From Thermoproteota archaeon (GTDB lineage Archaea > Korarchaeota > Korarchaeia > B14-G2): a stretch of DNA of 11,875 bases. Positions 220 to 11,823 of the stretch are shown in pieces (the first letter of the stretch is position 1; the number at the start of each line of letters is the position of its first letter). Location: positions 1-11,875 of the forward strand of contig JAVCBW010000044.1 of the NCBI GenBank assembly GCA_037917675.1, given 5' to 3'. The notes beneath the pieces were generated by a model, which did no database searches, was not told the DNA's origin, and saw nothing but the letters and a program-made list of their open reading frames with translations. Both the position numbers and the translations under genes were made by a program.

Positions 220-942
220 TTATAGTCCTAGGTAGGCTTTTCTTATCCTCTCGCTTTCCTCTAGCTCCTCTCTGCTGCCTTCCATCACTATTCTGCCTTG
301 CTCGAGGACGTAGCCGTGGTCTGCTATCTGGAGTGCCATGTGGACGTTTTGCTCTACTAGCAGGACTGTGAGCTTTAGGTCGTCTCTGAGCTTCTCAATG
401 ACCTTAAATACGTCCAGGATTAGTTTGGGTGCGAGCCCTAGGCTAGGCTCATCCATGAGTAGGATTTTCGGAGAGGACATTAGAGCTCTGGCTATAGCTA
501 GCATCTGGCTTTCTCCTCCGCTTAGGGTGCCTGCTAGCTGGCTGCTTCTCTCCTTTAAGATGGGGAATAGCGTGTAGACTATCTCAAGGTTCTCCTCGAA
601 CTTCTCTTCAGCTCGCTTCGTGTAGGCTCCCAGCTCAAGTGTCTCGTAGACTGTGAGCTGAGGCCAGAGCCTCCTTCCCTCTGGGACCATTATTATACCC
701 ATCTCAGCTCTCTTGTGTGTTGGAGCTTTCACGATGCTCTTCTCCATGTACTTGATGTCGCCCTTCCAGGGGCTTAGGATCCCTGTAGTCACCCTTAGTG
801 TTGTTGTCTTACCTGCTCCATTGCTCCCTAAGACTACTGTTATCTCTCCTTCTCGTGCTCTGAGAGACACGTCCCATAGTGCCTGGGCCTCCCCGTAGCC
901 TGTATCCACGTTATTTAGCTCAAGTATCGCCAACATGACCAC
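220..942 (-). CDS. livF: Branched-chain amino acid ABC transporter ATP-binding protein (LivF family)
   Basis: 240 aa; Walker A GSNGAGKTT, VPEGRR motif, signature LSGGE, Walker B LLMDEPSLGLAP, VEQN, C-terminal AYLG; last gene of the liv operon. Confidence 0.95.
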   Translation of the reverse strand: MVMLAILELNNVDTGYGEAQALWDVSLRAREGEITVVLGSNGAGKTTTLRVTTGILSPWKGDIKYMEKSIVKAPTHKRAEMGIIMVPEGRRLWPQLTVYETLELGAYTKRAEEKFEENLEIVYTLFPILKERSSQLAGTLSGGESQMLAIARALMSSPKILLMDEPSLGLAPKLILDVFKVIEKLRDDLKLTVLLVEQNVHMALQIADHGYVLEQGRIVMEGSREELEESERIRKAYLGL

Positions 943-944
943 CT

Positions 945-1718
945 CTACCTGACTTTGACGAACTTCAGCGCTAGCTCTCTGTCGCCTAGATATGCCTCTA
1001 TGACCTTGATGTCATTAGCTATCTCTATAGGCTTGCCTTCAGCTATCTTCTCTCCATGGTGTAGGACTACTATCCTATCTGCTATGTTCATGACAGCATG
1101 CATCACATGCTCTACCATGATGACTGTAAGCTGCTTAGCCTCCTTAGTCTCCTTGATCACCTTCAAGCTCTCCTCAACCTCCCTGGGGTTCAGTCCTGCT
1201 AGCACCTCATCTAGTAGGAGGAGCTTTGGCTCAGCAGCTAGAGCTCTAGCTAGCTCAAGAATCCTCTTCTCATGTAGTGTAAGCTTGCTTGCCAGCTCGC
1301 TTGCCTTGCCATCTAGCCCAACTAGCTCAAGGGTCTCCATCGCCCTGCTTCTAGCCTCCCTCATTGAGACTTTGCCTGCAAGCCTGCCGAAGAGCACCCC
1401 TACCATCGTGTTCTCTAGTACAGTCATGTCATTGAATGGCTTGACTATCTGGTGGGTTCTAGCGATACCCATGCGTGTCACCTGGTGGGCAGGCTTCCCA
1501 GTGATGTCTGTGCCCTCGAAGTATACTCTTCCCTCCTCAGGCCTATATACGCCTGATATCACGTTGAATAGCGTCGTCTTCCCAGCTCCATTAGGCCCTA
1601 TAAGCCCTAGTATCTCTCCATCATGTACATCAATGCTCACGTTGTTTAGGGCTACCAGCCCACCAAACCTCTTAGTCACTCCTTCAACGCTCAGAATAGC
1701 CTCAGGCATCGGCCTCAC
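945..1718 (-). CDS. livG: Branched-chain amino acid ABC transporter ATP-binding protein (LivG family); the start may be the internal ATG (MPEAIL...)
   Basis: KRFGGLVAL, GPNGAGKTT, GIARTHQ, LLLDEVLAGLN, VEH, IEAYLG motifs; abuts livM and livF. Confidence 0.95.
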   Translation of the reverse strand: MRPMPEAILSVEGVTKRFGGLVALNNVSIDVHDGEILGLIGPNGAGKTTLFNVISGVYRPEEGRVYFEGTDITGKPAHQVTRMGIARTHQIVKPFNDMTVLENTMVGVLFGRLAGKVSMREARSRAMETLELVGLDGKASELASKLTLHEKRILELARALAAEPKLLLLDEVLAGLNPREVEESLKVIKETKEAKQLTVIMVEHVMHAVMNIADRIVVLHHGEKIAEGKPIEIANDIKVIEAYLGDRELALKFVKVR

Positions 1719-2735
1719 CTACTCAAGTACCTCTCTAAGCTTCACCCCCCTAAGCTCATACCTCCTGAGTATGCCTACTATCCCTTCTGGAGCGAAGAGT
1801 ATTATAAGCCCTACTATGATGCCTAGGATTATCAGGTTTACTCCAGGGTAGTGTACTAGGAGCATGTCATATAGCCAGTAGTATATTATGCCTCCGATTA
1901 TGGGCCCTGAGACGGTTCCTAATCCCCCTATGACCATCATGACTATCATGTCTACTGTATGTGCTAGGTCGAATGCCTCACGTGACACTCCACCGCCATT
2001 CAGGTAGAAGACTGCTCCAGCTAGAGCTGTGAAGAAGGCGCTGAGTGTGAAGGCAAGCGTCTTGTACTTTGCAGTCGGGATGCCCATGTCCTCAGCTGCA
2101 TCCTCATCCTCTTTTATCGCCAGAAGCCCCATGCCAAACCTAGACTTCCTCACTAGGTAGTTTGCTGCTAGGACAAGCACCATCACAGTGAACATGGCTG
2201 TGAAGGTCGATGTCTTTGACACAAGACACCTACTAGGAAGGATCACCTGGGCACCATAGAACTGCTCTGGGTTGATGTAGGGTACTGTCCCCATCACGAT
2301 ATAGAGTACTGCGAAGTCTAGGCCTATCGTGGCTATTGCAAAGAAGGCTCCTCTCAGCCTAAGCACAACAGACCCCACAGCTGCAGCAACGAGGGCAGCT
2401 ATGGCAGCTGCTATCAGTGATATAGCTATTATCCCAAAGCCTCCAGTCTTCTGTAAGCTGTTAGCCCAAGGCACATAGTATACTAGGAGAGCGTAAATGT
2501 ACGCGCCTATCCCAAGGAACACACAGTGGCCGAAGCTGACATACCCTGTAAACCCCATGATGAGGTTTAGTGAAGCAGCTATCGATATGAAGTACATGAA
2601 GATCGTCATGGTATCTAGTGTGCTCAAGTTGAGTGCTCGTGCTGTAGCTACAGCAGCTATCAGGAGCACAATCAGTAGGGGAGTAGGCCTGAGGATGCTG
2701 GCCTTCAGCTCGCTAGCTAAGCTCAGAGCTATCAC
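1719..2735 (-). CDS. livM: Branched-chain amino acid ABC transporter permease (LivM family)
   Basis: Hydrophobic 338 aa; NLIMGFTGYVSFGH, LRLRGAFFAIAT, AIKEDEDAAEDMGI, IGGLGTVSGP motifs; GTGA start/stop overlap with livH. Confidence 0.93.
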   Translation of the reverse strand: MIALSLASELKASILRPTPLLIVLLIAAVATARALNLSTLDTMTIFMYFISIAASLNLIMGFTGYVSFGHCVFLGIGAYIYALLVYYVPWANSLQKTGGFGIIAISLIAAAIAALVAAAVGSVVLRLRGAFFAIATIGLDFAVLYIVMGTVPYINPEQFYGAQVILPSRCLVSKTSTFTAMFTVMVLVLAANYLVRKSRFGMGLLAIKEDEDAAEDMGIPTAKYKTLAFTLSAFFTALAGAVFYLNGGGVSREAFDLAHTVDMIVMMVIGGLGTVSGPIIGGIIYYWLYDMLLVHYPGVNLIILGIIVGLIILFAPEGIVGILRRYELRGVKLREVLE

Positions 2736-3646
2736 CTCCCAAACAGCCCCTCAGGCTTAAACAGGAGCGCCACTACCAGTATTATGAAGACTGTCGAGAG
2801 AGCTAGTGGAGCGCTAGCGAGAGGGTTAAATACTGCTATCACTGTCTTGAATACCCCATATGCAAGCCCTATTATCAGCCCACCTATAAACGAGCCCATT
2901 ATGCTGCCGAGGCCACCTAGCACTACTATCACGAAGGAGAGTGGTGTGTAGAGTGCTGCTGTCCCTGGTATTATCGATGTCTCATGTAGGAGGATCAGGA
3001 ACCCTGATAGCATGGTTACAGCTATGGATATCATGGTTGTCTGCATCTTGATCTTCACTGGGTTGATACCGACGAGGGAAGCTGCCTGAGCATCCTGCAT
3101 GACAGCTCTGATAGCTCTCCCCAGCTTTGTCCTAGATAGTAGGATATGGAGTGCAGCTACCAGGCATACTGCGAGGATACATGCTAGAATCGAGTTTGTT
3201 CTCACAGTCAGATAGCCTGCTCTCAAACTAGACTTCGGGCCGAAGTGCCAGAGTCCAAGCCCCTTTGGCTCAGACCCAATGAAGTAGTAGTATGAGTTTG
3301 CTACAGCTACTGAGAAGGCAAACATTATCAGGAGCGTAGCCATCTCAACTCTTAGAGTCATGACCTCAATTTTACCAACTAGCTTATGTAGCATCCCCCA
3401 GTATATCGCTGCCCCTACAGCTAGGCCTGAAGCCAGCACCACTATGAGAGCAATATAAGGTGATAGCTTCAGGATGCTGTAAAGCCCTATCATCATGTAA
3501 GAGCCTAGCAAAGCTACTTCTCCATGAGCTACGTTAACGACCTTCATAACACCCCAGATCAGAGTAAGCCCAGCTGAGATAGCTCCTAGGACAACACCCC
3601 ACAGGAGCCCATGCACTGTGTTAATCACAAGTGAAGTCAGGCTCAT
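2732..3646 (-). CDS. livH: Branched-chain amino acid ABC transporter permease (LivH family); start moved from 3688 to ATG 3646
   Basis: GLTLIWGVMKVVNVAHG, GRAIRAVMQD...LVGIN, VVLGGLGS, KPEGLFG motifs. ATG 3646 follows a GGTGGT SD-like sequence and avoids overlap with livK. Confidence 0.93.
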   Translation of the reverse strand: MSLTSLVINTVHGLLWGVVLGAISAGLTLIWGVMKVVNVAHGEVALLGSYMMIGLYSILKLSPYIALIVVLASGLAVGAAIYWGMLHKLVGKIEVMTLRVEMATLLIMFAFSVAVANSYYYFIGSEPKGLGLWHFGPKSSLRAGYLTVRTNSILACILAVCLVAALHILLSRTKLGRAIRAVMQDAQAASLVGINPVKIKMQTTMISIAVTMLSGFLILLHETSIIPGTAALYTPLSFVIVVLGGLGSIMGSFIGGLIIGLAYGVFKTVIAVFNPLASAPLALSTVFIILVVALLFKPEGLFGR

Positions 3647-3656
3647 GTAAACCACC

Positions 3657-3675
3657 AAAAAATAGAGGGTTGAGG
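3657..3675 (-). terminator. Probable partial (read-through) U-tract terminator between livK and livH
   Basis: Minus strand reads TAG-CCTCAACCCTCTATTTTTT-GGTGG after the livK stop. Pyrimidine/U6 tracts act as archaeal terminators and are common after binding-protein genes. Confidence 0.45.
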
Positions 3676-5037
3676 CTACCTCTTCCACCAGTTTGGTGCT
3701 GGATACACTGGCTTAGCTGTTGCAGCGCTCTCAGGCCATACCAGCTCCTTCTTCCCATTCTGCCATTGGATGACTACCATTGGGTGTCCTACCCCCTTCC
3801 CTGTCTCGGGGTCGATCCACCATGGGCCGAAGCAGGTCATGAGCTTCATGCCATTCATAGCTGCCCTGACTGCATCCTGATCTAGGCTTCCAGCCTTCTC
3901 TATCGCCCTAGCTAGGCAGAGGACTGCTGCAGCTGCCTCGGTGGCATGGTAGTCTGGCTCAACTCCACCTGAGATCTCCTTAACCATCGCTATGAACTCC
4001 TCGTTTGTGGGGCCATACCACTCGAGCCCTAGCTTCTTAGCTGCTTCAGGTGAGTACTTGACTCCAATCTCCCACTGAGCTGGAGCCATCACACCATTGG
4101 CAGCATCCTTCAGCTCCTCATAGAACTCTGGCAGTGTTGGTGCAACCAGAACAGCTATGGCCTTTAGCTTCCAACCCATCTCCCAAGATTGCCTCGTCAG
4201 AGCTGTGCTGTCAGCGAAGTGTCCTCCTCCAAGCAGGACGTTTGCTCCAGCTGCCATCGCCTCTGAGATAGGTGAGCCGAACTCTGTGACACCCACCTCA
4301 TACCTGAACTCATAGACCACCTTAAGACCCATCTCAGCTGCAGCCTCCTTAGCCCCCTTCATGACAGAAGCTGGGAATGGAGCATTCTCATATATGAGAG
4401 CTATCTTTATCTCAGGATCTTTCATAGCAGCTAGCAGCTCGACTACAGACCTCATGTAGTATGATGCAGGGCTCAGTGCACCGACGAAGTACTTGTAGCC
4501 CTGCTCGTATATGGTGTCGCTTGCTCCACCATGGCTTACCGCAATAACCTTGTGGGCTTCAGCTACAGGAGCAGCTGCCTTAGTAAGCAGTGAGGAGTAT
4601 GGTGCTAACAGGAAATCTACCTTGTCCTCTTCGATCAGCTTGCTGTATAGCTCTGGAACCCTCTCAGGCTTGCTTTCATCATCATAATACTTGTACTCTA
4701 GCTTGTAGGTTCTGTCACCGACCTTTATGCCACCATGCTCATTAATCCACTTGACTGCAGCTAGTATCCCCCAGAGAGCCTGCTTACCCTCATGCTCAAA
4801 CTTTCCTTTCAGTGATAGCGTGCCACCAAAGACTATAGTCTCCTTAACTGGAGTAGGCGAGGGAGTAGGGGTTGGAGTAGGAGTAGGAGTAGGAGTAGGA
4901 GTTGGAGTAGGAGTAGGAGTTGGAGTAGCAGTTGGTACTTGGCCTATGCAGCCAGCTAACATTATTGCTATCAGGATAGTTGAAGCTATCACTACATGTC
5001 TGATGCCTTTTCTCATCACATACAACACCCTTGACAT
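3676..5037 (-). CDS. livK: Amino acid ABC transporter substrate-binding lipoprotein (LivK/LivJ type-1 PBP fold); alternative start ATG 5016 (MRKGIRH...)
   Basis: Basic N-terminus, hydrophobic stretch and lipobox LAGC, then a Pro-Thr linker, then PBP1 motifs (GGTLSLKG, INEHGGI, YYDDES, LLAPYSS, VIQWQNG); first gene of the liv operon. Confidence 0.9.
   Translation of the reverse strand: MSRVLYVMRKGIRHVVIASTILIAIMLAGCIGQVPTATPTPTPTPTPTPTPTPTPTPTPSPTPVKETIVFGGTLSLKGKFEHEGKQALWGILAAVKWINEHGGIKVGDRTYKLEYKYYDDESKPERVPELYSKLIEEDKVDFLLAPYSSLLTKAAAPVAEAHKVIAVSHGGASDTIYEQGYKYFVGALSPASYYMRSVVELLAAMKDPEIKIALIYENAPFPASVMKGAKEAAAEMGLKVVYEFRYEVGVTEFGSPISEAMAAGANVLLGGGHFADSTALTRQSWEMGWKLKAIAVLVAPTLPEFYEELKDAANGVMAPAQWEIGVKYSPEAAKKLGLEWYGPTNEEFIAMVKEISGGVEPDYHATEAAAAVLCLARAIEKAGSLDQDAVRAAMNGMKLMTCFGPWWIDPETGKGVGHPMVVIQWQNGKKELVWPESAATAKPVYPAPNWWKR
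4849..4935 (-). repeat. Coding hexamer tandem repeat (ACTCCT/ACTCCA)n encoding a (Pro-Thr)n linker
   Basis: About 14 near-identical GGAGTA/GGAGTT units on the + strand; translates as PTATPTPTPT...PSPTP in LivK. Confidence 0.95.
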
Positions 5038-5060
5038 CCTCCATATAGGCGTCTAGAACA

Positions 5061-5077
5061 CTTTTTTTAAGCTTTTC
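5061..5077 (-). promoter_or_regulatory. Candidate BRE/TATA promoter of the liv operon
   Basis: Minus strand GAAAAG-CTTAAAAAAAG about 25-40 nt upstream of ATG 5037. Confidence 0.5.
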
Positions 5078-5114
5078 TACGTCAAAGACCGAAGAAGGCT
5101 TTTTTTGTAGGTTG

Positions 5115-5131
5115 TGTTAAAATTCTTAACA
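5115..5131. promoter_or_regulatory. Candidate operator palindrome upstream of the liv promoter
   Basis: TGTTAA-AATTC-TTAACA (6-5-6 inverted repeat) about 40 bp upstream of the putative BRE/TATA. Confidence 0.4.
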
Positions 5132-5406
5132 TTCATAGCGAGGCCCTGGACATGCCCATAACACGCATATTTGCAGAGGCTGCAGCTGAGTGTGTCCTGT
5201 AGGAGCTTCAGCAAGGGGAGGGTGAGAAGCTTCTAGCTATCATGGTGGCTGTGTACAGGATGTATGGCCTCTAGCTCCAGAGCTTGAGAGGCTACCATGC
5301 TTACCACATTCGTTATTTGCCGTAGGGTTCCTTGAAGCATGCTAGTAGAGCTCTGAGCCGGCGAGCATGAGCCTGCTGAGAGCTGAGAAGCTGCTTGCTA
5401 TGTGCT

Positions 5407-5422
5407 GCAGGTGAGCACCTGC
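5407..5422 (-). terminator. GC-rich inverted repeat at the end of the SsuABC-like operon (possible terminator or mRNA stability hairpin)
   Basis: GCAGGTG-AG-CACCTGC touches the ATPase stop codon; no clear U-tract follows. Confidence 0.3.
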
Positions 5423-6171
5423 TACCACCATCTTATGAGCTCTGTTATCTCCTTTCTTATCTCGATGAACTCGCTGCTTGTCACGTCTCTAGGCCTTGGG
5501 AGTGGCACCTTAACTTCAGCCTTGACCTTAGCTGGGATGCTTGAGAGGACGACCACCCTGTCTGCGAGGTAGACTGCCTCCTCTATGTAGTGTGTGACGA
5601 AGATGACTGTCTTCTTGAGCTTGCTCCAGACTCTCAGCAGCTCTCTCTCCATGTAGTATCTGGTCTGTATGTCTAGGGCTCCGAATGGCTCATCCATCAG
5701 CAGCAGATCAGGGTCTGTTGCTAACGCTTGAGCTAAAGCAGCCTTCTGCTTCATTCCACCTGATATCTGGTGTGGGTAGTAGTTTTCGAAGCCTTCTAGG
5801 CCAACTAGCTCTATAGCCCACTTGACCCTTTCCTCAACTTCCTCTCTAGTAAGCTTCCATCCTAGAGAGGCTATCTTAGCTTCTAGCCCAAACCTCACAT
5901 TCCCCCAGACAGTCCTCCAGGGGAGGTAGGATGGCTCCTGGAAGACAAACCCAATATTATGCCTCCTATAGTCTACTGGCTCCCCTGCTAGCAGGATTTC
6001 ACCTGAGTCTGGCTTGAGGAGCCCTGCGATGATCTTCATGAGAGTGGTCTTCCCGCAGCCTGTAGGCCCACATATAGCGACAAACTCGCTGCTATCAACA
6101 TTGAATGACACATGCTCTAGGACGAGAAGCTCTCCAAAGCTCTTAACTACACTCCTTACCTTGACATCCAC
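5422..6171 (-). CDS. ssuB: NitT/TauT family (SsuB/TauB-like) ABC transporter ATP-binding protein
   Basis: GPTGCGKTT, VFQEPSYLPWRTV, YPHQISGGMKQK, LLMDEPFGALD, FVTHYIEEAVYLADR, VPLPRPR motifs. Confidence 0.88.
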   Translation of the reverse strand: MDVKVRSVVKSFGELLVLEHVSFNVDSSEFVAICGPTGCGKTTLMKIIAGLLKPDSGEILLAGEPVDYRRHNIGFVFQEPSYLPWRTVWGNVRFGLEAKIASLGWKLTREEVEERVKWAIELVGLEGFENYYPHQISGGMKQKAALAQALATDPDLLLMDEPFGALDIQTRYYMERELLRVWSKLKKTVIFVTHYIEEAVYLADRVVVLSSIPAKVKAEVKVPLPRPRDVTSSEFIEIRKEITELIRWW

Positions 6172-6968
6172 TACACGACAACCTCCCTACGCCACTTAAA
6201 CAGCCTCCTTTCAGCTGCGAGGAATAGCTCATTCATCAGCAGCCCAATTACCCCTATGATGACCATCCCACACAGGACCTCTGGGATCCTGAGGAGCTCA
6301 GCATACTTTAGTATCAGGCTCCCTAAGCCCACCATCTCTCCACCTATCATCTCAGCTGCTACAATACACATCCAGCCTACCCCTAAGCCTATCCTCATGC
6401 CAGCTAAGACCTCAGGCATGATTGATGGTATAACTACCTTAGCTATGATGAACTTCCTGTCTCCTCCAAAGACCTTAGCTAGCTCAACATGCACCTGGCT
6501 TACTCTATGTATGCTTGCCAGTGTGTTTATGAATATCGGGAAGAAGGCTCCAAGCCATATGAGGAACATGTATCTCGAGAAGCCTCTAAGCAAGACTATA
6601 GCCAGGGGGATCCATGCTATTGGAGGTATAAACCTAACTGGCTCTATTATGCTCCTGGTAGACTCGTATGCTGGCCTATAGAGCCCCATGGCCAATCCGA
6701 GAGGGACCCCTGTAATGCAAGCGAAGAGGAACCCTGAGATCACCCTGAGTAAGCTCACCCCTACGTGTAGCCCTAGGGAGTACCCCTCTATGTCCCCCTC
6801 TAGAGCTAGCTTGCAGAAAGCTTTCAGGACTTCTAGTGGCTTCGGGTAAAATGGGGACCTGACTAGCATGGTGCTAGCATGCCACACTATAGTGAAGGCC
6901 AGTAGTGTAGCTGTGTTTGCTGCTATAGACCTGAGAGCTCTCAAGAGTACACCTACCTCACCAGCCAC
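6171..6968 (-). CDS. ssuC: NitT/TauT family (SsuC/TauC-like) ABC transporter permease
   Basis: SLLRVISGF, IPPIAWIPL, FFPIFINT, EAA-like loop (ELAKVFGG), GWMCIVAAEM and GLG motifs; coupled to both neighbours. Confidence 0.88.
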   Translation of the reverse strand: MAGEVGVLLRALRSIAANTATLLAFTIVWHASTMLVRSPFYPKPLEVLKAFCKLALEGDIEGYSLGLHVGVSLLRVISGFLFACITGVPLGLAMGLYRPAYESTRSIIEPVRFIPPIAWIPLAIVLLRGFSRYMFLIWLGAFFPIFINTLASIHRVSQVHVELAKVFGGDRKFIIAKVVIPSIMPEVLAGMRIGLGVGWMCIVAAEMIGGEMVGLGSLILKYAELLRIPEVLCGMVIIGVIGLLMNELFLAAERRLFKWRREVVV

Positions 6969-7969
6969 CTGAGCTCAAGCCTAAGGCTCTCTACGGCTTT
7001 CTCTATGAAGCTCTGGTCAACTGCCTCACTCAGGAACTCATCTAAGTCACCTACCTCTTCTGGGGTGAGGTCTCCTGCCTCTATGAGGCCTCTTAGCATT
7101 ATCTTCATGCTGTTGATGTCAAGGTATGGTGGGTATGGGTGCTTGACTATCCTATGAGCCATCTTGATGAGCTCTATATCTAGACCTGAGTACTTAGCTA
7201 TGATCTCCTCAGCTTCCTCAGGGTGCTCGCTCACCCACTTCATGGCTTTAACATGCCACCTGACTATCTTCAAGACGAGCTCAGGCCTCTCCCTCACCCA
7301 GTCTCCTCTGACAGCTATGATGCAGCACTGGTGGCCTGGTAGTAGGTCTCTCGAAGTCAGGAGGATGTGTGCTCCTCTTATCTTCATGTAGACTGCTCTT
7401 GAGGCATGTGGCTCCCATGCTATATACCCATCTATCTCACCCTTCTCAAAGAGCTTTATGAGCTCAGTGACCTTGTAATGTCTCCTTTCAAGCTTCACAC
7501 CCCACTTCTCCTCAACTACATTCAGCATGTAGTTCTGTATTGTACCTATGCCAGGTGTCCCTATCCTCCTGCCATCCAGGTCTCTGACGCCTTTTATGTC
7601 AGCTGAGACAACTAGAGCTGAGCCTTCAGTGTTCGATGAGGCTACAGCAACTATGTCAACACCCTTAGCTCTAGCTCTAAGGAATGGGACAGCTCCAACA
7701 TATGCTACATCAAGCTCTCCAGCAGCGAAGTGCAGCATCTCCTCTGGGCCATGCGCATACTCGAGGTGTACAGCCTTAAGCCCCTCTTCCCTAATGTACC
7801 CAAGTTCCTCAGCTACACACCACCCAGGCTGATGGAGCTCATCAGCTAGCAGGTGCCCTACCCTGAGCTCCACAACCTCAGCTCTGCGTGCATGCCAAGC
7901 TAAGGCGGCAGCAGCTAGGGCAGCAGCTAAAGCTGCTAGAGCCAGCTGCTTCCTCAAGTAGCCTCCCAC
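6953..7969 (-). CDS. ssuA: NitT/TauT family (SsuA/NrtA/CmpA-like type-2 PBP) substrate-binding protein; probable start TTG 7957
   Basis: Ala-rich N-terminal anchor, GELDVAYVG, EGSALVV, DLDGRRIGTPGIGTIQ, DGYIAWEP, GHQCC motifs; GGAGG lies just upstream of TTG 7957. The substrate cannot be determined from sequence alone. Confidence 0.8.
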   Translation of the reverse strand: MGGYLRKQLALAALAAALAAAALAWHARRAEVVELRVGHLLADELHQPGWCVAEELGYIREEGLKAVHLEYAHGPEEMLHFAAGELDVAYVGAVPFLRARAKGVDIVAVASSNTEGSALVVSADIKGVRDLDGRRIGTPGIGTIQNYMLNVVEEKWGVKLERRHYKVTELIKLFEKGEIDGYIAWEPHASRAVYMKIRGAHILLTSRDLLPGHQCCIIAVRGDWVRERPELVLKIVRWHVKAMKWVSEHPEEAEEIIAKYSGLDIELIKMAHRIVKHPYPPYLDINSMKIMLRGLIEAGDLTPEEVGDLDEFLSEAVDQSFIEKAVESLRLELRWLVR

Positions 7970-8843: not shown

Positions 8844-9068
8844 GTGGTTAGAGCATGTGTCCTGATCTACTGTAAGCCAGGTGAGTACCTAGATGTCTTG
8901 AGGAAGCTGAATGGGATGGAGGGTGTCAGAGAGGCGTTCCCAGTACATGGGAGATGTGATCTCATAGCTTTAGTTGAGGCTCTAGACTACCCTGAGCTCA
9001 GTGTACTCACAGCAAAGATAAATGCTATAGAGGGAATCCAGAGGACTGAGACTCTAGTGGAAGCCTAG
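8844..9068 (+). CDS. Stand-alone Lrp/AsnC ligand-binding (RAM) domain protein; probable start GTG 8844 (ORF track gives 8835)
   Basis: MVRACVLI...GVREAFPVHGRCDLIALVEA...INAIEGIQRTETL pattern, no HTH; AGGTG SD at 8833-8837 and TTTTTAAG TATA-like box at 8806-8813. Confidence 0.88.
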   Translation: MVRACVLIYCKPGEYLDVLRKLNGMEGVREAFPVHGRCDLIALVEALDYPELSVLTAKINAIEGIQRTETLVEA

Positions 9069-9234
9069 TGTATCCTCTCAGCCTCAAATCTGAGCCAAGC
9101 ATCTCTAGGCTTCTCCTCTGGTATCTCATTCCTCACCTTGACTAGCTTGAGTGCTCCACTTGGGCAGTGGTGTACACAGAGACCGCAGCCAACACACTTC
9201 TCCAGTATCAGCTCAACTCTATCCTCTTCACTAT
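9065..9234 (-). pseudogene. 3' remnant of a 4Fe-4S (ferredoxin-domain) protein gene, 5' part lost at the island junction
   Basis: One CxxCxxCxxxCP motif (CVGCGLCVHHCP) plus a tail in host-like codons. The ORF-track N-terminus (MIINRIFDFH) comes from AT-rich duplicated DNA. No partner Cys motif, SD or convincing start is present. Confidence 0.7.
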
Positions 9235-9249
9235 AATGGGCATAGTGAA
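9227..9249. repeat. 8-7-8 inverted repeat at the host/island junction
   Basis: TTCACTAT-AATGGGC-ATAGTGAA; the arms are exact reverse complements. Confidence 0.85.
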
Positions 9250-9494
9250 AATCAAAAATGCGATTAATAATCAAAAATGCGATTAATAATGTCTACTTTA
9301 CAGAAAAAGGCATAATAAGACTCGGCGATTTCGTTACAATTCAAAGAAAAGGTGGGGATGGAAAACATATTACAATCCCAAAGACCGATTGGAGTCATCC
9401 TGGCAATCAATTACAGTTCAAGTTCTCACCGTTAAAATTTACGGAATATATCGAATTGACAAAGGCTATTAAGTTTTGCGTAATAAATTACTAA
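9236..9494 (+). pseudogene. C-terminal remnant of a HinP1I-like type II restriction endonuclease
   Basis: FTEKGIIRLGDFVTIQRKGGD...GNQLQFKFSP resembles the HinP1I-family C-terminus as I recall it (TIQRKGGD...NMLQFKI.P). It covers only ~80 of ~250 expected residues, is frameshifted by the 19-bp duplication, and overlaps the MTase 3' end by 26 bp. Confidence 0.7.
9250..9290 (+). repeat. Perfect 19-bp tandem duplication
   Basis: AATCAAAAATGCGATTAAT at 9250-9268 and 9269-9287, followed by AAT. Confidence 0.95.
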
Positions 9495-11520
9495 GCAGCT
9501 GATATATATTTTCAATGGTATTTTCTGCATCTTTAATTCCAATGAGCTTAGCTATGGCTAAATCAAGTCTGTATCTGTACTCTTCACCTAACTGTTCCCA
9601 TAGAGAAGGAAGATGTTTATCTAGTATATTGTTAACAGTTTTAACTACTTCTGATAACGCTTCTTCATCATCTTTATTCAAATTTATTATAGGCAGTTCA
9701 AGATAATCGTTTTCCAAAAACCTAGTCCATGTCTCTGATATTCTTCTACCTAATAGTACTAAAACTGAGATGAAGATTGTGCTATTAAACCAGCCAGTAA
9801 GAAGCTTTGTGAAAGTTTCATTTTTATCTCTAACAATATAGAAGTTCTTAGACGCTGCTACTCTTTCTTTAGTATAATTTGCGAACACGCCTCTATTTTT
9901 AAAAAGCAAATCAACCTTATCGGGTATGAATACTTGTCCGAAAGGCTTTTTTGTTATCATTTGCTTATAAACGTGACTATACCAGTACCTTCCATAAGCA
10001 TTTATGGCGGGTTTTGCAGTGTTTGACTTAATCCCCCATTCAATATAATGTTGTAAGTCGCTTGGTAAATCGTTGACCTCGATAGGAGGTATTGAAAGCA
10101 TGAAGGTATCTACGCTGGCCTCTATTTTATGGCTATAAAAACTCGGTTTACGAAGGGTCTTTATAAGAAATTCTTTGTTAATAGCTAATTCTTCATCGTT
10201 TTCGTTCATTATCTTCACAAAGTCTTTCTTTTCCTCTACAAGTTCCCAATACTTATTTGGAATAAAGAAGAACTCTGGTCCGTACATTTCTACTCCTCTA
10301 ATGATGCTGCCTCTACCAAGCATATCATTCCAGTATCCAAGTGTTCTTTTCTTTAATCCCTGCTCGAATACGCTGACAACGGTGTCCCTCAGCTTATCTT
10401 CTCCAAAGAGAGCTAACCAATTAATATCTAAAAATCGTGGCAAAGTATGAAGATTAGTTGTTATACATGGCTTAATATTGCTCATGATGATTTTGGCTAC
10501 CTCTTCAACATTATTATCCAGTTCGATAAAGGCTGTTGATCTTTCATTAGAACCCTTAACTGCTACTATGATCACCTCCTTAAATCCGCTATCTTCTGAG
10601 AATGATGCTCTTGATTTGCATTCAACCATTGCGTATATTCCGTACTTTTCTCTTAACAAGGACTTATATCCTCTTCCATATATTGTATAAAACGTGGATG
10701 CTGGTAGCACAGAAATTAGTAAGCCGTTCTCGTTTAGAATGTAATCACAGAGAAACATGGATAGTGTTTGAAGGCTAACCTCTTTCCTGGTTATATACTT
10801 TTTATATCCTAATCCCTCTATAACTGAGAGAAGGAATTCTCGATATTTTTTCTCTAGGTATTTCCATCGAGTAAATGGAGGATTTGTCAGGATTATATCT
10901 GCTCTTGGTATTTCAGGTTGTAGAAATGGGGAAGAAAGCTTGGGAATTTCTTTGAAAGAGTCTCCCACTATCACAGTAACGGAGTCTTTCTTACCCCCCA
11001 TCGAATGAAGTAACGATGCATAAGCGACTAAAGCGGGCAAGGGTAAAGGTTCTATTCCCCATACTTTGCCTATCCTCTCAACTCCTACTTTTTCAATCGT
11101 GGCTGTCAGTGTAGAACCGGAACCAAGAAATGGGTCCGCAAGAACAACTTTTCCTTTTCTTGAGCGTATGAACTCTTTGACAACTGATGCCATAAGAGCT
11201 GTCCCCTGTTGTATGGTGTAGTATGCTGCAAATTTCTTCCTCTCTTCCTGTGGAATTAACTTTTGGACTCTTATTTGAGCTTCCTTAATGGAAAGTTTTG
11301 TCTTTTGTGCTTCTGATTTAATGGTCTCAATCTCATTAGAATTCAATTTATTCAAGTTGGGTAAAACCGGAGCATTCCAATTTGCTAATGATTCCATATT
11401 ATCAGCGTATTCTAATATCGTTTTTATGCTAGCTGCAAGAACTTGGAAGCTCTCCTTACTAATAGGCTCTATACCTAACTTTTTCAATATTATGTCTCTA
11501 GCCTTCATCTTTTCTTTCAC
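9469..11520 (-). CDS. Gamma-class amino (N6-A or N4-C) DNA methyltransferase with long C-terminal target-recognition region; probable start ATG 11508
   Basis: Motif order X (FAAYYT), I (LADPFLGSG), II (GIE), III (GDSF), IV (ILTNPPF), VI (LNENGLLISVLP), VIII (SFSEDSGF). There is no room for an N-terminal nuclease domain. GGTGA SD precedes ATG 11508. Confidence 0.9.
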   Translation of the reverse strand: MKEKMKARDIILKKLGIEPISKESFQVLAASIKTILEYADNMESLANWNAPVLPNLNKLNSNEIETIKSEAQKTKLSIKEAQIRVQKLIPQEERKKFAAYYTIQQGTALMASVVKEFIRSRKGKVVLADPFLGSGSTLTATIEKVGVERIGKVWGIEPLPLPALVAYASLLHSMGGKKDSVTVIVGDSFKEIPKLSSPFLQPEIPRADIILTNPPFTRWKYLEKKYREFLLSVIEGLGYKKYITRKEVSLQTLSMFLCDYILNENGLLISVLPASTFYTIYGRGYKSLLREKYGIYAMVECKSRASFSEDSGFKEVIIVAVKGSNERSTAFIELDNNVEEVAKIIMSNIKPCITTNLHTLPRFLDINWLALFGEDKLRDTVVSVFEQGLKKRTLGYWNDMLGRGSIIRGVEMYGPEFFFIPNKYWELVEEKKDFVKIMNENDEELAINKEFLIKTLRKPSFYSHKIEASVDTFMLSIPPIEVNDLPSDLQHYIEWGIKSNTAKPAINAYGRYWYSHVYKQMITKKPFGQVFIPDKVDLLFKNRGVFANYTKERVAASKNFYIVRDKNETFTKLLTGWFNSTIFISVLVLLGRRISETWTRFLENDYLELPIINLNKDDEEALSEVVKTVNNILDKHLPSLWEQLGEEYRYRLDLAIAKLIGIKDAENTIENIYQLLSNLLRKT

Positions 11521-11759: not shown

Positions 11760-11823
11760 AATTGGTGTTTACTTTGCAGTGGGACAATGCAAATAGTTGT
11801 TTACTTTGCAGTGGGACAACGCA
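11760..11823. repeat. 32-bp imperfect tandem duplication (2 copies, 3 mismatches)
   Basis: AATTGGTGTTTACTTTGCAGTGGGACAATGCA / AATAGTTGTTTACTTTGCAGTGGGACAACGCA; shared core TGTTTACTTTGCAGTGGGACAA. Confidence 0.93.

Follow-up and report, generated by a model that had tools for sequence, protein, structure and literature searches.

Can a restriction nuclease of the HinP1I fold be partnered by an amino-methyltransferase in place of the C5-methyltransferase that accompanies HinP1I itself, and which base would such a partner methylate? The question is raised by one end of an 11,875-nt stretch of archaeal DNA (hereafter the window), which is the whole of contig C10 of genome G000, the host genome. 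An initial annotation of this DNA had reported a QRKGGD...QLQFK fragment that converges on and overlaps a 683-aa methyltransferase (MTase) with an NPPF motif, and both reading frames are present in that arrangement (Table 1). The part of the window from 220 to 7969 has host-like GC content and, from motifs recognised by eye, carries two ABC transporters, one of the branched-chain amino-acid type, with a Pro-Thr repeat linker in its binding protein, and one of the nitrate/sulfonate type; an HTH regulator and a small gene with an Lrp/AsnC domain come next.

Table 1. Features at the nuclease-methyltransferase end of the window.
Feature	Coordinates	Strand	Basis
4Fe-4S domain fragment, host GC, abuts break	9065..9240	-	Fer4 1.2e-8
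19-nt tandem duplication, perfect, at break	9250..9287	+	repeat detection
HinP1I-fold nuclease, 3' remnant encoding roughly the C-terminal 75 of 257 aa	9269..9494	+	homology to intact genes
Overlap of convergent 3' ends, 26 nt	9469..9494	.	ORF ends
Gamma-order amino-methyltransferase, intact, 683 aa	9469..11520	-	ORF list, profile matches, homologues 82% and 75% identical
Pair of direct repeats, 32 nt each, 91% alike, near contig end and upstream of the MTase	11760..11823	+	repeat detection

The nuclease gene is truncated. The fragment lies in a 78-aa open reading frame on the plus strand (9258-9494), but homology to intact nuclease genes starts only at about 9269 and the ATG at 9258 sits inside the first copy of the 19-nt duplication; the frame is therefore not a natural short gene, and its start codon is spurious. 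GC content is 0.50 before about position 9240 and 0.36 beyond it. The 4Fe-4S fragment, on the opposite strand, terminates at the same break as the nuclease remnant. It probably represents the 3' end of a longer gene that was truncated together with the nuclease, and in the simplest reading a single deletion would have taken the 5' portions of both genes, which would have been divergent. Nucleotide identity to a metagenomic locus with an intact pair (L005) is similar for the remnant (79.6%) and the MTase (81.3%), so that the loss of the nuclease looks recent. The 19-nt duplication has no further copy in the rest of the genome, and the 32-nt direct repeats have no match elsewhere in the assembly. 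Near 11799, at these repeats, the contigs of two public sequencing runs both diverge from the window, which suggests another context or allele.

The initial annotation had assigned the fragment to the HinP1I family and had proposed a profile search with the 9258-9494 peptide as a check. Used alone, the peptide gives weak matches to Pfam PF11463 (E 0.006; 16.5 bits, under the cut-off of 25) and to the PADLOC profile REase_II (E 0.004), and neither the remnant nor the MTase has a meaningful match when the PDB is searched directly with it; a Pfam family search of the host genome likewise gave no match, as was the case for all 14 controls. The family assignment holds by way of full-length homologues, to residues 180-257 of one of which the remnant is 79% identical. 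Two of these pass the same Pfam cut-off for R-HINP1I (E 1.7e-11 and 3.7e-11; 44.4 and 43.4 bits), and a full-length homologue aligns with PDB 1ynm over residues 7-235 (E 3.8e-7). The AlphaFold model of one homologue (P0002), built from a 53-sequence alignment, has a pLDDT of 90.8, compared with 36 for a single-sequence model; Foldseek matches it to HinP1I (2fkc, E 5e-13, TM 0.69/0.72) and next to MspI (1.8e-6). The predicted structure thus places the full-length homologues in the HinP1I/MspI monomer fold.

The catalytic residues of HinP1I, which we take to be E18, D62 and the Q81xK83 module, are largely conserved in this family: E21, D63 and K79 (equivalent to E18, D62 and K83) are kept in all 116 intact homologues, and the glutamine of QxK is replaced by serine, as it also is in the Spiroplasma orthologue. 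The remnant retains QRKGGD...QLQFK, but as residues 180-257 are all that is present, the catalytic E21, D63 and K79 are missing from it, together with Q88 and R91. No nuclease match beyond these residues was found in the rest of the host genome, which is 92.7% complete. At this locus the nuclease survives as a dead remnant and the MTase as an orphan, and the pair would no longer provide functional restriction.

The MTase, by its motifs, is a gamma-order amino-MTase. Motif I (DPFLGSG, near residue 128) lies ahead of motif IV (NPPF, near residue 213), and the C-terminal half resembles the Eco57I_C/TaqI_C domains, the presumptive target-recognition domain (TRD). Searched against solved structures, the MTase profile matched M.BseCI, an m6A enzyme with a six-base site, best of all (1.8e-22), and then BpuSI and the PacII subunits. 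At E<=0.001 it reached 504 cluster representatives, which grade into IIG-like proteins of about 950-1000 aa, and NPP with the arginine that follows is nearly invariant across the family. A crude motif scan of the host genome returned this MTase as the sole DNA-MTase candidate, with two further matches that look like RNA MTases and no C5-MTase. Motif IV by itself does not settle whether such an enzyme makes m6A or m4C.

The base can be approached through the site of the nuclease. In HinP1I, K96 reads the first guanine, and K223 with Q93 reads the second base pair (PMC7026639); in the 1ynm alignment these residues correspond to R91, K210 and Q88 of the homologue. All 116 full-length homologues have R91 and K210, and likewise Q232 and K234. 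Q88 is kept in 79 of them (H in 16, N in 15, S in 6) and in 22 of the 28 with a matched MTase, a variation that counts against GCGC, and D213 is found in 59 of 116, with asparagine in the remainder. If the site starts with G-C and is a four-base palindrome it would be GCGC, and hence free of adenine; a five-base pseudo-palindrome with the same start would have adenine on just one of its strands. As each cassette has a single MTase, either length would call for methylation of cytosine, which from an amino-MTase would be m4C. The initial annotation had left two ways out, an m4C enzyme at an adenine-free site or a shift of the nuclease to a site with adenine, and the conserved guanine-reading positions favour the first: the MTase probably makes m4C, whatever the precise site.

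The alternative that best survives, unlikely though we think it, is that the nuclease family did shift to an adenine-containing site and that its partner is a conventional gamma MTase that makes m6A. The classification of known enzymes leans this way: Table S1 of PMC10609329 gives m6A only for the standard gamma groups g2, g5, g6 and g7, the m4C exceptions listed among gamma MTases being mini-gamma or DPPY enzymes, and accounts of PacII assign nothing but m6A to its NPPF subunit, and m4C to its NPPY subunit, M2 (PMC9613975, PMC5100572). The position of M.BseCI as nearest solved structure and the low identity of the homologues to HinP1I orthologues (about 20-27%) also count on this side, together with the variation at Q88 and D213. 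Against this, PacII M2 and M.Sbo13I demonstrate that the gamma fold or motif order can yield m4C (PMC9613975, PMC5100572, PMC2890505), and both guanine-reading positions are invariant. Moreover, a palindrome that starts with GC must be six bases long to hold adenine on both strands, a length beyond the 4-5 bp that monomeric Type IIP enzymes are described as reading (PMC2978348).

A further argument against a shift of site comes from an insertion that the initial annotation had noted between the two motifs of the fragment (KHITIPKTDW) and had suggested as a possible aid to such a shift. The insertion is real, but it comprises nine residues and not about ten (19 as opposed to 10 residues between QRKxG and QxK), and we reject it as a specificity switch. 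It is also found in the nuclease of Borrelia burgdorferi N40 lp28-5 (L003), beside a C5-MTase, and in that of L013, a viral locus whose adjacent MTase is M.HhaI-like (E 2e-87), and DNA of strain N40 is reported to be resistant to HhaI/SfoI (PMC3303823). As the insertion occurs beside C5-MTases, one of them tied experimentally to GCGC, it is no sign of a changed site. Relatives that lack it likewise have C5 partners, and among distant relatives a C5 partner was seen at five of seven distinct loci (L003, L013, the near-identical L015-L019 set, L053 and L054), both of the two partners tested being M.HhaI-like; the other two loci are a fragment (L004) and one with no visible MTase (L014).

Some of these distant loci deserve mention in their own right. 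The L015-L019 contigs are viral, giant-virus-like by their neighbours, and in them the HinP1I-like nuclease converges on its M.HhaI-like C5-MTase; L014, which carries a distant HinP1I-like nuclease, is also a viral contig. On Borrelia N40 lp28-5, the 'hypothetical protein' that follows the GCGC C5-MTase (L003:3446-4180) matches the family profile at E 3e-18 and looks like the cognate HinP1I-like restriction enzyme of that MTase, a protein for which neither Pfam nor the PDB gives a match by itself.

A second alternative, which we regard as improbable, is that the MTase makes m4C at a different or relaxed motif with a GC start (GCWGC, GCSGC or GCNGC), read with the help of the insertion. The related monomers MvaI and BcnI are described as reading five-base pseudo-palindromes (PMC7026639), the variation at Q88 would be accommodated, and GCSGC was the most depleted word in seven cassette genes after codon shuffling, but this amounts to 1 occurrence where 3.6 were expected. 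The insertion-bearing relatives, on the other hand, have GCGC-type partners, and in the sample of G013, a complete genome with an intact cassette, the observed/expected ratio (O/E) was about 1.0 for each of the three relaxed motifs and 0.74 for GCGC.

Word counts were taken from samples of 80-320 kb, except for the host genome, which was counted whole, and the related genomes among them are not independent. GCGC avoidance does not discriminate between genomes with the MTase (O/E 0.70-0.99 in six) and those without (0.79-1.15 in five); among 16 palindromes GCGC ranks between first and fourth in depletion in the six genomes with the MTase, and second in two of the five without. In the seven cassette genes GCGC occurs twice where 4.2 would be expected, counts too few to judge. 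Two other words stood out. GGWCC is the most depleted short palindrome in the whole host genome (O/E 0.69), where the crude scan found no matching MTase, and CGCG is strongly depleted (O/E 0.47) in the sample of a genome without the MTase family (G023; L075-L084), which may reflect a different restriction-modification system.

The pairing itself, which the initial annotation had proposed to look for in other archaea, recurs. A metagenome scan with the MTase gave five loci (L005-L009). In L005 and L007 a nuclease gene of 257-258 aa lies tail to tail with the MTase; L006 has the same MTase as L007 and ends just past it, and neither L008 nor L009 is long enough. Together with the complete genome G013 these make three intact convergent pairs, with different neighbours at each, and the convergent 3' ends overlap by 29, 14 and 29 nt (L005, L007 and L021). 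At all four nuclease-linked loci that were read the partner is an amino-MTase and not a cognate C5-MTase. In a FastTree phylogeny (70 rows, midpoint root) the four MTases linked to a nuclease group in a single clade (support 0.998) amid solitary ones.

Nuclease homologues numbered 158 among 741 candidates; among the 120 listed, the named ones are mostly archaeal (Infirmifilum, Fervidicoccus, Korarchaeum, Thermofilum, Sulfolobales, Asgard groups and Geoglobus acetivorans), together with a few bacteria. For the C-terminal half of the MTase, 289 homologues were found among 6899 (120 listed). As an indirect test of linkage we matched the longest-contig values of the 120 nucleases with those of 119 of the 120 MTases listed, which gave 30 pairs (one ambiguous), whereas controls over 100 offsets averaged 0.84 and never exceeded 4. 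The pairwise identities of nuclease and MTase correlate across 28 pairs (r 0.76; 0 of 2000 permutations), although the kin among them are not independent. One pair bears adjacent locus tags (QXF05_04575/04580), and G. acetivorans carries both genes. Counting against our explanation, 28 of the 91 nucleases on contigs of at least 3 kb were matched to an MTase and 63 of 91 were not, and a large, partly bacterial clade of 254-aa nucleases has no matched MTase; another MTase search, based on a peripheral alignment, brought one or two further length matches, none of them for that clade. Outside the host phylum, the neighbourhoods come from the two metagenome loci and the indirect matches. The two genes form a conserved, mobile cassette, in which separate but linked restriction and modification genes travel together.

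That the juxtaposition in the window is an assembly error, or that the genes are no cognate pair, is very hard to credit: contigs from two public runs, possibly the assembly's own source, tile the break region in fragments, the sole listed piece that spans it being a 92-nt contig (depth 73 versus 283-448) with no joint listed, and most host-phylum MTase homologues have no nuclease, but the same convergent overlap is found at the three intact loci, whose MTases fall in the nuclease-linked clade.

The spread of the two genes is patchy. Within the host phylum the nuclease occurs in 3 of 43 genomes, intact in G013, as the remnant in the host genome and as a piece at a contig end in G022. The MTase family is found in 27 of the 43, in 25 of them at E<=1e-60 with a profile that included near-identical members. 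Among the matches listed, most of these MTases are solitary, with host-like GC content and flanks that are common within genera. Such solitary copies (L022-L044 and L047) occur in about 23 host-phylum genomes, and G013 holds two copies, one solitary and one linked to the nuclease. They look like persistent orphans, and lie outside the 2023 archaeal survey, which included few such genomes. A viral contig also carries a family MTase (L050:3995-6067; 54% identical), with no nuclease match within 10 kb, and this could be an anti-restriction gene. A phage collection gave no nuclease match and, for the MTase, only distant halovirus IIG-like enzymes.

We favour, by a modest degree, the view that what survives here is a degraded copy of a Type II restriction-modification cassette that is mobile and found mostly in thermophilic archaea, with GCGC as its site and m4C as its mark. 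In the intact cassette, a 257-aa nuclease of the HinP1I fold would cut G^CGC, presumably as a monomer that nicks each strand of the unmethylated site in turn, as is described for HinP1I (PMC2978348). A single convergent, full-length gamma-order MTase of the Eco57I/TaqI type would protect the host by methylating N4 of the target cytosine, flipped into its NPPF pocket. Such an enzyme would have replaced the M.HhaI-type C5-MTase, the partner of this fold in mesophilic bacteria and viruses, and heat may have been the reason for the exchange of MTase class, m4C being probably the more heat-stable mark on cytosine; hot-spring DNA is described as nearly free of m5C in a bioRxiv 2026 preprint, whose main text does not contain the string 'archae'. 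In the host genome a recent deletion would have taken the first 180 or so codons of the nuclease, leaving the MTase as the only gene that can work, and loss of the nuclease is a route by which many of the solitary copies could have arisen. A wider scenario, possible but in our view doubtful, is that an NPPF gamma MTase related to IIG enzymes writes m4C at GCGC, displaced the C5 partner in hot habitats and was kept by the lineage as a solitary, vertically inherited gene, providing a lineage-wide Gm4CGC mark in most genomes of the host phylum.

If the favoured explanation is correct, a stand-alone, full-length NPPF gamma MTase would join the short list of m4C writers, and sequence-based annotation would mislabel the whole MTase family as m6A. 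It would further provide a clear-cut natural example of a restriction enzyme that retains its site while the class of its methylase is swapped, and would hence put to the test the proposed avoidance of m5C by thermophiles. Intact copies are available in named organisms, Geoglobus acetivorans (GACE_0263) and Ca. Korarchaeum cryptofilum, and may give a thermostable HinP1I isoschizomer as well as an enzyme that writes m4C at GCGC. Should the MTase instead prove to make m6A at a new site, the outcome would be less of a surprise, a known fold that has acquired a new specificity. Searches of open-access papers turned up no account of the pairing or of a gamma m4C enzyme for GCGC, although a putative or PacBio-assigned REBASE entry may exist. 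The GCGC rows listed from the supplements of Blow 2016 give two m5C MTases (two of three rows) and one unassigned case with 17% m4C. The string 'GCGC' appears neither in the text nor in the supplement of the 2023 archaeal REBASE survey, whose rows for Korarchaeota and Archaeoglobi read 0 in the column we take to be Type II restriction endonucleases. A six-member HinP1I subfamily is listed, with no further detail, in PMC2441816; bioRxiv 10.1101/2023.12.13.571470 served for classification.

Compared with known systems, the archaeal nuclease shares with R.HinP1I (G^CGC; PF11463; PDB 1YNM/2FKC) its fold, a length of about 250 aa, the QRKGG...QxK module and the positions equivalent to E18, D62, K83, K96 (as arginine) and K223. 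It differs in its low overall identity, in the nine-residue insertion and in the serine that replaces the glutamine of QxK. Its partner is a gamma amino-MTase placed tail to tail, whereas the C5-MTase of HinP1I lies upstream on the same strand, and the Spiroplasma and Mycoplasmopsis orthologues of HinP1I have dcm-type partners. The pair on Borrelia N40 lp28-5 (the GCGC C5-MTase N40_Y07 and the 244-aa nuclease P0001) is linked to the archaeal one by the shared insertion and by 44% identity over the remnant, but its C5-MTase is in tandem and the nucleases are 24% identical overall.

On the modification side, the g7 gamma MTases (M.BseCI, M.TaqI and M.Eco57I type) and the Eco57I-like Type IIG enzymes have the same I-IV-TRD order, an NPP(F/Y) motif and an Eco57I_C/TaqI_C-like C-terminus. 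The g7 members listed are m6A enzymes, whereas the archaeal family has an invariant NPPF-x-RW and a partner nuclease of the HinP1I fold. Precedents for m4C share the motif order or fold, namely M.NgoMXV (mini-gamma), M.Sbo13I (DPPY) and PacII M2 (Type I, NPPY), but these are small, DPPY-type or Type I subunits, and none is a stand-alone 680-aa NPPF Type II enzyme with a fused TRD. The archaeal cassette would work like a Type IIP system, with a nuclease that belongs to PF11463 and yet is not accompanied by the C5 partner of the HinP1I and HhaI systems.
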